The notes beneath the pieces are model-generated. The model did no database searches. It was given only the letters and a program-made list of their open reading frames with translations, and was not told the origin of the DNA. Below, piece by piece: positions 2,042-47,966 of a DNA stretch of 64,000 bases; within the stretch, counting starts at the first letter, position 1; every line of letters begins with the position of its first letter. This DNA is from Paludibacteraceae bacterium. GTDB taxonomy: Bacteria > Bacteroidota > Bacteroidia > Bacteroidales > Paludibacteraceae. The stretch spans positions 106,004-170,003 of the forward strand of contig JBGUSG010000003.1 of NCBI GenBank assembly GCA_045132415.1, written 5' to 3'. Made by a program: the position numbers and the translations under genes.

Positions 2042-2257
2042 ATTGCAAATATTAATGGTTGTTTTTAATAAAAAATCTTCGCATTATGCCAAAATTCGGA
2101 CAAAGGTACAATTTTTTTTGCACCTGTGCAAGAGAATGTGTAAAAATATTTTTTTTAAACAATTTTGTGGTTGGCTTCGGAGCGTAGTTGGGTAATCTGT
2201 GTAGATGGATGACTTGTGGCTGCCTGCCCGCTCATCAGAAGTTGATCAAACCAAAAG

Positions 2258-2406
2258 TTCTCCGCAAGCTACGCGACCATTTCGCGACCACTGTAGCACA
2301 TCTATCGCCTATTTGTATCATAGCGGTAGCTTTTGTGGGTTCACATTCCCATCATTCAGGATAGCCATAGAACCTTATAAGAATAAATATAACAATAACT
2401 CTCACC
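2258..2406. repeat. intergenic module D1 (paralogue of D2 at 46036..46200)
   Basis: GCTACGCGACCATTTCGCGACCACTGTAGCACATCTATCGCCTATTTGTATCATAGCGGTAGCTTTT...AAGAATAAATATAACAATAACTCTCACC aligns by eye with 46048-46200. Confidence 0.7.
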
Positions 2407-2441
2407 TTAATAGGGTGTTCTCAGGTTAACAACCCGATTAT

Positions 2442-2496
2442 CCTACGTATATCTTACGTATATGTTACGTATATCCTACGTATATGGTACGTAATT
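2442..2496. repeat. tandem array T1: 5 x 11 bp, each unit containing the palindrome TACGTA
   Basis: Units are CCTACGTATAT CTTACGTATAT GTTACGTATAT CCTACGTATAT GGTACGTAATT. A near-identical array with the same flanks (AACAACCCGATTATC ... GA-A-GGAAA) lies at 47653..47707. Confidence 0.9.
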
Positions 2497-2567
2497 GACA
2501 GCGGAAAGACAGGGATTTAGCAAGAATCGTTATGGGGCTAATCCCACTGATAACACTTTTCTATTCC

Positions 2568-46000: not shown

Positions 46001-46237
46001 GAATCACATTCACGGTATTTTATCTGGATTTTTTCAAGTTCCCTTCGGGCTACGTGACCACTTCGCGACCACTGTAGCATATCTGTGTCCTATTTGTGTC
46101 ATAGCGGTGGCTTTTCAGTTTTTACCTTTCCGTTTTCTATTCCCCTTGCTGAAGGAGCGCTTGAATGCGAGCACTAAGAATAACAATATAAAAACTCACC
46201 CCGCTACCAAATGAGAGTGGCGGGGTGAATGTGATTC
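46001..46237. repeat. 237-bp segment bounded by perfect 13-bp inverted repeats; contains module D2 (46036..46200)
   Basis: GAATCACATTCAC at 46001-46013 and GTGAATGTGATTC at 46225-46237. The interior is homologous to D1 (2258..2406). Confidence 0.7.
46197..46227 (-). terminator. intrinsic terminator of the 46281..47024 gene
   Basis: Minus strand CACCCCGCCACTCTCATTTGGTAGCGGGGTG followed by AGTTTTTAT. Confidence 0.65.
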
Positions 46238-46280
46238 AGTTACCTGTATTGAAATAAACTGAGAATACTTATTTATAGCA

Positions 46281-47024
46281 TTATTTTATTTCTTGACCTT
46301 GGATGGTATAAATATTCTTTTCGTTCTCTATTAACACTTGAGCATCGTGGATATACTTACGGGCATTGCGACGAGGGGCATAAACTTCGTTAATCGCTGT
46401 AGCTTCGCCATTACCTGGGAGAGCATAAATATCATAATCATATCTGCCATCATCATCTTGATTATTCTCTACTATTAATTTATATCGTTCATCAACTTTT
46501 ACTAAATAGCAAAAAGATTGGTCAATACTAGCATAGTTTTTACAGGTATATGGCATAGATGTTAGAATGTTGCCATCTTGAGAGATGACCTTAATTTCTC
46601 CTTTTCTTGGGTCTCCATAGTAACCAACTTCGGTTACTGTTCTACAAATATAAGCAAACTTAGAATCGGTAGTGAAAATATTTTTGGCAATGAAATATGG
46701 TCCTCTATATGTGTTTCGTCCAAAAGTTTGTTCTACATTCACAGAAAACTCTAACGAATAATCGTTTAAATTATACACATTGGTAAAAACAGTCGGATCA
46801 TATTGTGCATTACCATCATCAGCAAACTCGGTTAGAATAAGATAATCCCCACCGATGACAAAAGGATAAAATTCTTCAACTAACGGAAAAACTTTTACAT
46901 TGCGTCCAAAATTATATGAACTGATGCCGTCCTGCAAATCGGTTAGTGTGTGTTCCAATGTGATTTGAGCGTGAGATAATAGTGTAGCAAAAAGGAATGC
47001 TACCAAGGCGAATAATTTTTTCAT
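46281..47024 (-). CDS. secreted hypothetical protein with T9SS-type C-terminal tail
   Basis: Signal peptide MKKLFALVAFLFATLLSHAQ (start moved from 47057). C-terminus ...AQVLIENEKNIYTIQGQEIK resembles Por/T9SS sorting-domain ends. AT-rich gene. Confidence 0.6.
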   Translation of the reverse strand: MKKLFALVAFLFATLLSHAQITLEHTLTDLQDGISSYNFGRNVKVFPLVEEFYPFVIGGDYLILTEFADDGNAQYDPTVFTNVYNLNDYSLEFSVNVEQTFGRNTYRGPYFIAKNIFTTDSKFAYICRTVTEVGYYGDPRKGEIKVISQDGNILTSMPYTCKNYASIDQSFCYLVKVDERYKLIVENNQDDDGRYDYDIYALPGNGEATAINEVYAPRRNARKYIHDAQVLIENEKNIYTIQGQEIK

Positions 47025-47071
47025 AAACTTACATGTCTTTTGGGACATTGGCTCCAAATGCCCTATTGCTA

Positions 47072-47328
47072 TAAATATACAAAAAGCGTGGAACCTTACT
47101 TTTGCTTATTCTTAACTATTGAGGTTCTGGTAAACCTATTCCCCAAGAATAAACAATAACGCCCACGCTGATATGTACAACGCGCACTATCAGCGCGGTA
47201 GAATACATACCAATGAGCATTTATTGCTGTTCTTGCCTTGGGGGAAGGAAATTTACCAGATTTCAATAGTTCCAAAACAAGCGCTAATAAACGCTTTTTA
47301 TTTATGTCTGCAAACTTTTGGTTTGCGG
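47072..47328 (-). ncRNA. E3: divergent third member of the E family
   Basis: Minus strand: -7 box TACCTTTG (47331-47338), P1 GCAAAC-CAAAA-GTTTGC (47310-47326), and an extended hairpin at 47111-47272 (AACTATTGA/TCAATAGTT, TCTGGTAAA/TTTACCAGA, CCCCAAG/CTTGGGG, CTGATA/TATCAG). The 3' end AAGCAAAAGTAAGGTTCCACGCTTTTTGTATAT is homologous to the E1/E2 terminator but has a weaker stem. Confidence 0.45.
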
Positions 47329-47330
47329 TG

Positions 47331-47338
47331 CAAAGGTA
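47331..47338 (-). promoter_or_regulatory. -7 box TACCTTTG driving E3
   Basis: Minus strand TTTTTCACTACCTTTGCACCGCAAACC. P1 starts about 4 nt after the box. Confidence 0.6.
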
Positions 47339-47652
47339 GTGAAAAATTTGCAGGTGTGCAAGAAAAATTGCATTTTCTTGCGATTTTTTACTCGGCGGGT
47401 TATCGCCGAGCACAAGACAAGTGGCGGGTATTGGGAGTCGGGACTCGCGAGACGGGAATCCGTCGAGCGGAGGATAGGGAGCATGGTACGGGGAAAGTAT
47501 TGGATGGTGATACAGTGGTAACAGAGTGGTATCGGAATAATAACGAGGTGGTTTCGAGAAAGATAGCGGGAAAGAAGCATATAGAAGGCAGGATGAAGGT
47601 AAGAGGACGATAGGAGGGAGATAGGGTATTCTTAGGTCAACAACCCGATTAT

Positions 47653-47707
47653 CTTACGTGTATCCTACGTATATGTTACGTATATCCTACGTATATGGTA
47701 CGTAATT
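47653..47707. repeat. tandem array T2: 5 x 11 bp TACGTA-containing units
   Basis: CTTACGTGTAT CCTACGTATAT GTTACGTATAT CCTACGTATAT GGTACGTAATT, with flanks homologous to T1. Confidence 0.9.
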
Positions 47708-47966
47708 GATAAGGAAAAGGCAAGGGAAGAAATAGGGATAATGGGGAAATACAAAATACATAAGGGGTAGGAAAAATGGAGTAAAAAAGTGGTTGGTTAG
47801 GAGAGTCTGCAACCGATTGCGGAGATTTATATGGCGGGATTGAACTGAAAAATCGCAAGAGTATTGCATATGTCAAAAAAATGTTGTACCTTTGCAGCGC
47901 TTTTTGTGCGCACGTGCGCATGTTTTTTTTGAATACTAAGTACAAAAAAGAATAAAAATTACAATT

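Follow-up and report, generated by a model that had tools for sequence, protein, structure and literature searches.

Correia elements of Neisseria, enterobacterial ERIC/IRU elements and REP/BIME sequences are transcribed palindromic repeats that modulate neighbouring mRNAs: they form long RNA hairpins, are co-transcribed with genes and can have promoter or terminator activity. For the Bacteroidota, few RNA regulators are known and, to our knowledge, these bacteria have no Hfq, ProQ or CsrA and use no Shine-Dalgarno sequence. Among the RNAs described there, FopS comprises trans-acting sRNAs of 65-70 nt, bound by RbpB and with an exposed, conserved 5' seed (PMC11697453), and DUF805b and DUF805 (RF02914 and RF03081) are cis-regulatory candidates located in 5' UTRs. 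The element analysed here, E3, lies on the minus strand of a 64,000-nucleotide stretch of DNA (the window) and is a strongly folded leader RNA of ~245 bases, located 5' of a gene for a secreted protein.

E3 and its relatives (E elements) share with the Correia, ERIC/IRU and REP/BIME repeats, compared by description only, the condition of dispersed, multi-copy imperfect palindromes. Unlike them, E elements showed no terminal inverted repeats with target duplication, keep a strict orientation, possess two covarying alternative folds and are conserved across the phylum, not a genus or family. With trp-, pyr- and T-box-type attenuators and riboswitch platforms they have in common that they are promoter-proximal leaders, that one segment (S3 and C in E3) has either an upstream or a downstream partner, and that the downstream pairing stops at a U-run a short way ahead of the gene under control. 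They differ from these in lacking a leader peptide, a recognisable aptamer, tRNA-binding features or an Rfam match, in occurring in 28 copies per genome before unrelated accessory genes, in having as "antiterminator" a rod that runs the whole length and takes the U-run into its pairing, and in showing an extra conserved contact with a hairpin past the terminator. Assignment to a riboswitch class was rejected on the lack of an Rfam match and the heterogeneity of the downstream genes, and neither a ligand-like conserved pocket nor a trans factor was identified. FopS and GibS are, as the E elements, multi-copy non-coding RNAs of Bacteroidota with TAnnTTTG-type promoters and a link to the outer surface (PMC11697453); E elements are, in contrast to FopS, 175-330 nt long, stand directly upstream of genes and show no sequence similarity to it. 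The DUF805b and DUF805 candidates, also from Bacteroidota 5' UTRs, are hairpin motifs of 35-68 nt distinct from the E element. Finally, 6S RNA is similarly rod-like, about 180-200 nt in size and closed by its 5' and 3' ends, but it differs from the E element, which occurs in many copies, lies in gene-leader position and contains no large central bubble; 6S RNA was discarded as an identity for the E element, given 28 copies in the genome and 6S and 6S-Flavo models that gave no hit even at E<=10.

The initial annotation had described E3 as a diverged third member of a family, after E1 and E2, that keeps the architecture but not the sequence of the stems. Direct reading of the minus strand recovered every sequence feature that it named (Table 1). 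A covariance model (R1) built from nine E1/E2-type copies, without E3-type sequences, matched E3 over its full length (47081-47314, minus strand, model positions 1-200) at 38.2 bits and E=1.8e-7, the best noise for this model being 11.6 bits. E3 can thus be threaded onto the E1/E2 model and, together with the duplex and pair-count tests described below, this bore out that it is a diverged E1/E2 relative whose stem sequences have turned over. The notion of a third member had to be abandoned, as a joint nhmmer profile search revealed 28 family copies in the 2.1-Mb genome, the E3 type being the majority (19/28). In all 26 copies with a downstream ORF this ORF is co-oriented, at a distance of 22-200 nt; of 25 upstream genes, 8 are divergent. 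E3 therefore belongs to the family and, as its relatives, is co-oriented with its downstream gene.

Table 1. Features of E3 and its surroundings (positions in the window)
Feature	Position	Strand	Remark
-33-like TTG, putative promoter element	47359..47361	-	20 nt 5' of the -7 box
-7 promoter box TACCTTTG	47331..47338	-	predicted transcript start about 47327-47325
P1, 5'-terminal hairpin GCAAAC-CAAAA-GUUUGC	47310..47326	-	from sequence and MFE fold
GACAUA motif, conserved, single-stranded	47303..47308	-	ACATA invariant in the 24-copy alignment A1
S1, AAAAAGCGU	47291..47299	-	closes the rod by pairing with ACGCUUUUU (S4 + U-run)
Arms AACTATTGA/TCAATAGTT	47271-47263 / 47122-47114	-	from sequence
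A strand (AACUAUUGA, AA, UCUGGUAAA)	47252..47271	-	5' half of the hypervariable central helix
TATCAGCGTG	47173-47164	-	apex motif named in the initial annotation
S3, GCGUGGGC	47161..47168	-	partner is the apex 5' strand (rod) or S4 (terminator)
T domain, long-range terminator hairpin, 83 nt	47086..47168	-	S3:S4, C:C', tip AGGU:ACCU, A' core in loop
A' strand (UUUACCAGA, ACC, UCAAUAGUU)	47114..47134	-	3' half of the central helix
H-box GGUUCC	47090..47095	-	6-nt bulge in the rod; partly within the terminator stem
S4 (ACGC) + U5 run	47081..47089	-	predicted 3' end of the terminated RNA
Post-terminator hairpin GGGCAUU-U-GGAGCC-AAUGUCCC	47042..47063	-	loop complements the H-box
Downstream gene	46281..47024	-	signal peptide MKKLFALVAFLFATLLSHAQ; no family match
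1.42-kb block	46198..47616	-	upstream region, promoter, E3, hairpin, gene and gene terminator

At the 5' side, the TACCTTTG box is the -7 promoter element of Bacteroidota; the window has 26 of these boxes where 2.1 would be expected, and a TAnnTTTG box is found 30-100 nt upstream of the GACATA motif in 19/24 full copies of this genome. The TTG further upstream is a putative promoter element, judged from the known TTTG/TAnnTTTG layout of Bacteroidota promoters, and a CTTGC/TTTGC block is aligned at this -33-like position in other copies too. P1 differs between E3 and E1 by exactly the two paired changes noticed initially; however, this hairpin, although found in other copies, shows hypervariability of both length and sequence within the family, which makes these changes weak evidence on their own. 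The linker reads AGCGTTTATTAGCGC, and the arms listed in Table 1 are accompanied on the minus strand by TCTGGTAAA/TTTACCAGA, CCCCAAG/CTTGGGG, AACAGCAATAA/TTATTGTTT and CTGATA/TATCAG. The 3' end is ...AAGGTTCCACGCTTTTT, with 47081 as its last position. CACGCTTTTT, at S4 and the U-run, is conserved family-wide, and the G, GT and adjoining bases of S3 are invariant in alignments A1 and A3.

The extended hairpin attributed to E3 was reproduced by the MFE fold of the whole transcript (-92.3 kcal/mol), and the resulting rod, which ends in a 4-bp GCGU:ACGC helix next to the U-run, is the MFE fold in every copy examined. The structure belongs to the RNA and is strand-specific: the sense strand of E3 folds at -85.8 kcal/mol versus -68.9 kcal/mol for the antisense (a difference of 16.9), sense is the more stable in 50/51 copies (mean difference 16.8 kcal/mol), and the folds of the copies contain 592 G-U pairs in sense versus 273 in antisense, with 18 versus 50 A.C mismatches. 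The central helix of the rod differs in sequence in almost every copy. Its cognate A:A' duplexes amount to -11.1 and -9.3 kcal/mol versus -3.5 and -3.3 kcal/mol for non-cognate ones; for E3 itself the figures are -11.5 and -7.2 versus -4.8 and -2.8 kcal/mol, and at most 2.3% of non-cognate partners equal its cognate duplexes. Pairing in the rod involved 77.9% of cells, compared with 43-51% after sliding, with 371 double-change cells versus 170 in shuffled data; phylum-wide, the values were 90.5% versus 36-47% and 581 versus 179, all these counts coming from copies that are not independent of each other, either within one genome or across kin. Alignment A4 was fitted to the structure of the model. 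Since their sequences are conserved, covariation cannot be tested in S1:S4, S3:S4 and C'':C', the helices common to both folds. A further hairpin in the 5' half (H5, A-outer:A*) found no general support (-5.2 versus -4.5 kcal/mol), and its x:x' pair is accounted for by the rod.

The second fold involves the 3' end, which the initial annotation had considered to carry a degraded terminator stem. This proved to be mistaken: the T domain forms a long-range hairpin with a GCGUGGG:UCCACGC base, a UUGUUUAUUCUU:AAGAAUAAGCAA middle and the AGGU:ACCU tip, followed directly by U5, and folds at -31.8 kcal/mol (z=-5.3), stronger than in E1 (-23.9) or E2 (-24.4). The GC-rich basal stem with a U-tract immediately after it is a feature of intrinsic terminators; the small local GAAC-GAAA-GUUC hairpin of E1 is missing from E3, and a simple terminator scanner made no call at the T domain of E3 because the interior of the hairpin is long. 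E3 shares with its family the alternative 3' hairpin, in which S3 pairs with S4, the tip is AGGY:RCCU and a U-run follows. In this fold, 79.2% of cells are paired, compared with 37-53% when slid, and the C:C' duplex yields -12.7 kcal/mol for cognate versus -8.6 kcal/mol for non-cognate strands. The tip pair is UA in 32 cases, CG in 17, UG in 2 and other in 0, and no change matching these variants was detected in the 5' strand of the rod. Phylum-wide, the geometry of hairpin plus U-run is conserved and the tip appears as GGU:ACC, GGC:GCC or GGG:CCC (from the flank-pair table, the automated tip-stem duplex test being noisy). Both the rod and the terminator fold carry compensatory change, and A:A' and the tip stem enclosing A', which are mutually exclusive, both covary.

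A further long-range contact involves the H-box, which is unpaired in the rod MFE and has its complement in the loop of the hairpin that follows the U-run. A post-terminator hairpin with a matching loop was present in 28/28 copies with a GGUUCC, GGUACC or GACUCC H-box, and at least nine compensated H-box:loop variants were found order-wide, including GGUACC:GGUGCC, GACUCC:GGAGUC, AGUCCC:GGGACU, CAGUCC:GGACUG and AAGCACC:GGUGCU. This covariation backs the contact and, as the loop lies beyond the U-run, read-through transcripts must matter. From the U-run to the ATG at 47024 there are 56 nt, which contain the conserved hairpin but no promoter box.

We hold, with moderate confidence, that the gene at 47024 has E3 as its promoter-proximal 5' leader, within a Bacteroidota-wide family of bistable leaders. 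A role as cis leader or attenuator had been raised at the outset as an alternative, and it is the better reading in view of the 26/26 co-orientation and the H-box:loop covariation. According to the mechanism we propose, transcription would begin about 5 nt past the TACCTTTG box and the nascent RNA could zip into a ~230-nt rod through apex:S3, C*:C, A:A' and the pairing of S1 with S4 and the U-run. Alternatively, the 3' 83 nt would fold on themselves as a continuous hairpin (S3:S4, C:C', tip AGGU:ACCU) ending exactly at U5, which may act as an intrinsic terminator and free an RNA of ~245 nt. The rod would leave GGUUCC bulged beside S4, and the GGAGCC loop of the read-through RNA (47055-47050) could pair with this bulge, locking the rod and completing a compact 5' UTR just before the start codon. 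We infer termination by the compact hairpin, read-through by the rod and a regulated partition between them, which would set the amount of polymerase reaching the gene. Counting against a two-state model, the rod surpasses the combination of 5' part and T hairpin by 13 kcal/mol in stability and should also win co-transcriptionally, zippering from the apex; in addition, the rod itself could terminate by means of the GCGU:ACGC helix at the U-run. An extension that we consider unlikely is that the family constitutes an ancient, phylum-wide class of RNA switches gating accessory "contingency" genes (surface or secreted proteins, restriction-modification systems), either through a common signal or protein or through a stochastic partition of folds. 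Were it true, a stochastic partition would produce heterogeneity resembling phase variation without any DNA change, and locking of a read-through state by the H-box:loop contact would be novel.

Possible, although doubtful, is that no switch exists and that E3 is a constitutive structured 5' UTR, in which the rod and the docked hairpin stabilise and insulate the mRNA with the help of the 5'-terminal P1 hairpin, the long duplex and possibly RNase III processing. The U-run would then exist mainly as the complement of the A-run, and the alternative hairpin would either arise when the processed RNA refolds or serve as a partial, fail-safe terminator without regulated choice. That the rod is the MFE, and kinetically the obvious fold, in all copies examined speaks in its favour, as do the location of P1 at the extreme 5' end, an H-box:loop contact that fits only the rod and read-through RNA, and downstream genes too diverse for a common metabolic signal. 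Yet the tip hairpin has the A' core in its loop, so it cannot coexist with the A:A' helix, and it covaries independently, in at least four lineages here and as three Watson-Crick variants phylum-wide; moreover, C' and C* are equally good partners for C, and the hairpin-plus-U-run geometry is maintained throughout the phylum.

It is improbable that the terminated ~245-nt RNA is itself the product, a multi-copy sRNA acting in trans whose place before genes is incidental or reflects a dual use. The element does have its own promoter and a hairpin with a U-run, the gene downstream of E1 has a separate promoter 170 nt further on, and multi-copy sRNA families such as FopS exist in Bacteroides (PMC11697453). 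As to expression, a 306-nt bovine-gut metatranscriptome contig covers 47012-47315 with 0 mismatches and includes E3, the U-run and the start codon, such contigs showing no RNA ends and possibly stemming from DNA carry-over in the RNA libraries. In four metatranscriptome runs, exact contigs fell on the element and none on the gene body (46505-46931) or upstream of the promoter (47359-47600), a weak observation from contigs only, and these gaps are not counted as evidence. However, the strict co-orientation of 26/26 copies with a close next gene is at odds with such a role, E3 leaves no room for a second promoter, and the only hypervariable segment sits inside a duplex and is not exposed as a seed. 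Furthermore, each H-box covaries, locus by locus, with its own downstream hairpin loop, which argues for an intramolecular contact in the read-through RNA.

The history of the locus bears on a third proposal. The 1.42-kb block is missing from a paralogous intergenic region (window 2255-2514), and this comparison shows E3 and its gene as one inserted block that moved together. The 853-aa neighbour is conserved in 40/41 genomes of the genus; at the 29 loci of relatives that were inspected, the region upstream of it contained neither E3 nor its gene. Synteny ends at ~47874-47937, even with the closest relative, without a simple empty site there, and the genes beside the relatives' family copies included no orthologue of the E3 gene. 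Homology boundaries vary from subfamily to subfamily. That the elements are selfish palindromic DNA repeats of a MITE, REP or attC kind, which might fold as single-stranded DNA and owe their arm complementarity to processes at the DNA level, the RNA features being by-products, seems very improbable to us, even though they are dispersed, multi-copy imperfect palindromes associated with accessory genes, four contig ends mark places where near-identical copies interrupted the assembly, E3 is missing from the syntenic site in the 29 relatives and the genome has one Y1-transposase-like ORF. Indeed, G-U pairs far exceed A-C on the gene-sense strand, the second, exclusive fold and the loop-bulge contact both covary, and the homology extends over both the promoter and the post-terminator hairpin, E3 having travelled with its gene as a block. 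Besides, a copy linked to an MBOAT gene is retained at the orthologous locus in three species, and the divergent orientation of 8/25 upstream genes is unlike attC cassettes. A MITE or Correia-like repeat was discarded, as the sole empty-site comparison concerns a 1.42-kb block with a gene and no terminal inverted repeats or target duplication were visible at 46198/47616; so was a REP/RAYT system, with a single weak Y1_Tnp match (25.3 bits) on a contig (C10) that has no E copy. The least tenable idea, almost certainly wrong, is that the element encodes a small hydrophobic peptide (MLIGMYSTALIVRVVHISVGVIVYSWGIGLPEPQ in E3, ATG near 47216): several E3-type copies have a 22-37-codon ORF over the same conserved nucleotides (...ISAWAFIVYS...), but many others (e.g., L002, L006, L012, L014, L016, L019, L024-L027 and L042-L044) have no ORF of at least 15 codons, starts and frames differ in the remainder, and conservation proceeds by base-pair compensation with indels, not by codons.

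The downstream gene had also been called a T9SS cargo, which could not be confirmed: its 255-aa product, which carries a signal peptide, matched nothing in Pfam or NCBIfam, no C-terminal sorting domain (Por_Secre_tail / TIGR04183) was found with these collections, and its C-terminus resembles that of a BspA-like paralogue over only 48 aa. The gene neighbouring another copy (L010) carries a C-terminal sorting domain.

The family was traced phylum-wide, in gut Paludibacteraceae, Prevotella, Flavobacteriia, Sphingobacteriia, Chitinophagia and Cytophagia, with Alistipes putredinis DSM 17216, Sphingobacterium lumbrici, Myroides, Paenimyroides aquimaris and Flagellimonas meridianipacifica among the cultured carriers. 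Copies mostly precede genes for surface proteins and restriction-modification systems, and the downstream genes are heterogeneous (LRR adhesins, MBOAT, GtrA, proteases, DNA methylases). A structured leader is thus placed, up to 28 times per genome, before genes that shape interactions with host, phage and community, and the covariation in favour of two exclusive folds and a third long-range contact makes the family a ready-made model for co-transcriptional RNA switching. It is in no catalogue searched: Rfam 15, at gathering and permissive thresholds, gave no family at the element in E3, E1, distant homologues or the loci of named species, no published description was found in the literature, and the HMP2_1881/HMP2_4205 candidates, in the portion of the supplementary files available (PMC8040213), lack the GCGUGGGC motif. 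Its inclusion in RNA catalogues is warranted, and would improve the annotation of 5' UTRs and "intergenic repeats" in MAGs. In E3, the Rfam search gave no DUF805 or DUF805b match, the GGAGCC hairpin standing there instead, and the DUF805b loop was discarded as a partner for the H-box, inspection revealing no convincing complementarity. DUF805b does lie 40-70 nt past the U-run of four E copies of this genome (L006 twice, L019 and L020), and also at L101, and in Sphingobacterium an E copy is followed by DUF805 at a distance of about 140 nt.

All the features listed by the initial annotation were found at 47338-47066 on the minus strand. The TACCTTTG box, present 26 times in the window versus 2.1 expected, is the Bacteroidota -7 promoter element and, as a TTG is located 20 nt upstream of it, the E3 transcript should start at ~47327-47325, directly before the 5'-terminal hairpin P1. 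Up to the U-run, this transcript was folded by RNAfold into P1 plus one rod of ~230 nt (-92.3 kcal/mol), which reproduces the arm pairs described earlier. The threading of E3 onto its relatives was carried out with R1, a covariance model built from nine E1-type copies only (alignment A2) and searched over the window. R1 scored 220 bits for E1 and 212 bits for E2, and matched E3 over the full model at 47081-47314, minus strand (38.2 bits, E=1.8e-7), the central helix having different yet complementary bases; the best other match reached 11.6 bits (E=0.31). E3 therefore withstood the check that the initial annotation had set for it and is a diverged member of the E1/E2 family, as had been claimed, but not the third of a trio: when the genome (2.09 Mb, 30 contigs, 43.8% GC) was searched by BLAST and nhmmer, a single profile yielded 28 copies, nine of E1/E2 type and nineteen of E3 type, some with apex insertions of 60-100 nt and four located at contig ends. 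All four of these contigs break off within E3-type copies that are nearly identical (C8:3-170, C30:102285-102441, C13:1-166 and C21:1-164); two or more duplicates of very recent origin, or copies resulting from gene conversion, exist and interrupt the assembly.

The family extends well beyond this genome. Copies were found by BLAST in 21 of the 24 other species of the genus, and the E1-only model detected it in 37/60 genomes and 25/33 genera of the taxonomic family, and in 20/120 other families of the order. A 20-base apex pattern gave more than 118 stretches among the matches listed, which come from Bacteroidia, Flavobacteriia, Sphingobacteriia, Chitinophagia and Cytophagia, with carriers including Alistipes putredinis DSM 17216, Sphingobacterium lumbrici, Myroides, Paenimyroides and Flagellimonas; 72 of the 80 loci retrieved contained full-length model matches. 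Phylum-wide, too, the downstream genes encode surface proteins and proteins with a signal peptide; of 64 such genes, about ten belong to restriction-modification systems. No matching family was found in Rfam 15, nor any description in the papers searched.

A comparison of the strands of 51 copies (24 from this genome and 27 from congeners) argues that selection acts on the E transcript and not merely on a DNA palindrome. The gene-sense strand folded better than its complement in 50 of them, by a mean of 16.8 kcal/mol (for E3, -85.8 versus -68.9 kcal/mol), with 592 G-U pairs in sense versus 273 in antisense and 18 versus 50 A.C 1x1 mismatches. The downstream ORF, beginning 22-200 nt past the element, is co-oriented in all 26 copies having one, and a TAnnTTTG box is found 30-100 nt upstream in 19 of 24 full copies.

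Two folds could be distinguished. In the rod, the central helix formed by its 5' (A) and 3' (A') halves differs in sequence in nearly every copy while keeping complementarity: cognate duplexes averaged -11.1 versus -3.5 kcal/mol for non-cognate ones in the core, and -9.3 versus -3.3 kcal/mol in the outer part, the cognate duplex ranking in the top 5% in 43/51 and 47/51 copies, respectively. On A3, a MAFFT alignment not fitted to the model, 77.9% of the E3 rod cells were paired versus 70.3% when shuffled and 43-51% when slid, with 371 versus 170 double-change cells; phylum-wide, on a model-fitted alignment, the A:A' values were 90.5% versus 36-47% slid, and 581 versus 179. The second fold involves the 3' 83 nt of E3 (47168-47086), which alone form one continuous hairpin ending directly at the U-run (U5). 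This compact hairpin (-31.8 kcal/mol, z=-5.3 versus dinucleotide shuffles) is stronger than its equivalents in E1 (-23.9) and E2 (-24.4), so that the "degraded" terminator stem was a misreading; the extra local GAAC-GAAA-GUUC hairpin of E1 is absent from E3. In the compact fold, 79.2% of cells were paired versus 37-53% after sliding. The tip pair, which is U:A (32 copies), C:G (17) or U:G (2) and broken in none, has switched independently at least four times without a corresponding change in the 5' strand of the rod, and across the phylum the tip appears as GGU:ACC, GGC:GCC or GGG:CCC. Since the tip stem encloses A', it and A:A' are mutually exclusive, and the E RNA is genuinely bistable. Segments S3, S4, C and C', used in both folds, are conserved in sequence, so covariation has no power on their pairings; such conservation would be expected of segments that each have to fit two partners.

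A third conserved contact involves the H-box, a hexamer that forms a 6-nt bulge in the E3 rod and, in the terminator fold, lies partly inside the stem. Each of the 28 copies having an H-box of this kind carries a matching hexamer at a hairpin apex 13-32 nt beyond the U-run; a partner is missing from all E1-type copies. GGUACC copies carry the loop GGUGCC and the GACUCC copy carries GGAGUC, while pairs in other families of the order and phylum include AGUCCC:GGGACU, CAGUCC:GGACUG, AGUUCC:GGAACU, AAGCACC:GGUGCU and UUGCAGUC:GGACUGCAA. H-box and loop vary together from locus to locus, and the loop is located 3' of the U-run. The contact must therefore form within read-through RNA, which shows that such RNA matters; the E3 read-through MFE contains it. 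No promoter box was found in the 56 nt from the U-run to the ATG (47024), so the gene depends on the E3 promoter.

Features of E3 and of related loci, with predicted pairings
Feature	Position	Strand	Remark
P1 hairpin	47326-47310	-	just 3' of predicted transcript start
Rod closure, AAAAAGCGU with ACGCUUUUU	47299-47291 with 47089-47081	-	RNAfold
Compact hairpin base, GCGUGGG:UCCACGC			E3
Compact hairpin middle, UUGUUUAUUCUU:AAGAAUAAGCAA			E3
Compact hairpin tip, AGGU:ACCU			E3; loop is the A' core
H-box GGUUCC	47095-47090	-	just 5' of S4; complementary to post-terminator hairpin loop
Post-terminator hairpin GGGCAUU-U-GGAGCC-AAUGUCCC	47063-47042	-	~20 nt past U-run
Paralogous intergenic modules	2255-2334 / 2410-2514 vs 46036-46115 / 47621-47725		second pair split by 1.42-kb E3 block
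DUF805b sites	L019:2530-2564; L006:2534-2568 and 2078-2112; L020:2524-2558	-	Rfam RF02914
DUF805b site	L101:1734-1769	+	Rfam RF02914
DUF805 RNA	L169:3773-3840	+	RF03081; ~140 nt after E copy, Sphingobacterium lumbrici

Other observations concern the region past the U-run. When read-through RNA is folded, its MFE pairs the conserved CAUAAAU belonging to the GACAUA motif (47306-47300) with GUUUAUG (47028-47022), a stretch containing the start codon; this pairing, on which covariation is powerless because the motif is invariant, might connect the leader with the initiation of translation. A 5'-UTR motif, AAAGUUGCNCCCGACAC...AGGG (a CCC/GGG hairpin), lies between E copy and start codon, just before the latter, at L017, L032, L035 and L043, from different species, and had no significant match in Rfam. 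In the GCAGUCCCGC subfamily (congeners L044, L045 and L049), the sequence of S4 recurs in the post-terminator hairpin and is followed by a second U-run (for example, GCGGGAAC...GUCCCGCUUUUU). This makes a putative second terminator in tandem, and its 5' arm could pair with S4 as well. Several E copies are followed, 40-70 nt past the U-run, by the DUF805b RNA motif (above gathering score), and the DUF805b/DUF805 motifs may have in the E element an upstream partner that has gone unrecognised.

The reading that we favour, at somewhat better than even chances, is that E3 is a leader that acts in cis to attenuate transcription. The compact hairpin with U5 would terminate transcription, and the rod, once the contact between H-box and loop has locked it, would allow transcription to continue into the gene. 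This reading has weak points: the base of the rod itself abuts the U-run, and the rod is favoured over the terminator fold by 13 kcal/mol, and kinetically as well, so that termination needs something holding back its 5' strand. The main rival, which we consider rather unlikely, is a UTR with a constitutive role in stabilisation or insulation. A trans-acting sRNA, a selfish repeat or a peptide-coding element are less likely. As for expression, the locus is present in bovine-gut metatranscriptome assemblies: a 306-nt contig with 0 mismatches spans 47012-47315, from just inside P1 over the U-run and start codon, and two more exact contigs span 47081-47294. These contigs show only that E3 is present in RNA libraries and that its terminator is bridged, as contigs give neither RNA ends nor levels and DNA carry-over is possible.

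The gene downstream of E3 encodes a 255-aa protein with a signal peptide but no match in Pfam or NCBIfam, which leaves its earlier label of T9SS cargo unconfirmed. Other copies precede genes for BspA-type LRR, Por_Secre_tail, MBOAT, GtrA and DUF3267 proteins, trypsin-like proteases, lipoproteins and a DNA methylase. E3 and its gene are accessory: the conserved 853-aa neighbour is found in 40/41 genomes of the genus, and E3 and the gene were absent upstream of it in the 29/29 relatives' loci inspected. A 1.42-kb block (46198-47616), made up of the upstream region, the promoter, E3, the hairpin and the gene with its terminator, is missing from the paralogous intergenic region 2255-2514 of the same genome, and neither terminal repeats nor a target duplication are obvious; rather than moving as a repeat by itself, the leader travels together with its gene. 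Three species retain the MBOAT-linked copy at the orthologous site, A:A' being different and compensated in each. A single Y1_Tnp-like (IS200/RAYT-type) match (25.3 bits) lies at C10:126652-126942, minus strand, within a 342-aa open frame with no E copy nearby. A second dispersed repeat of ~250 nt (window 47473-47730), containing a 5 x 11-bp TACGTA array, occurs many times without an E copy and also 60-130 nt upstream of E3 and at least eight other copies (contigs C3, C6, C8, C11, C12, C13, C21 and C30).
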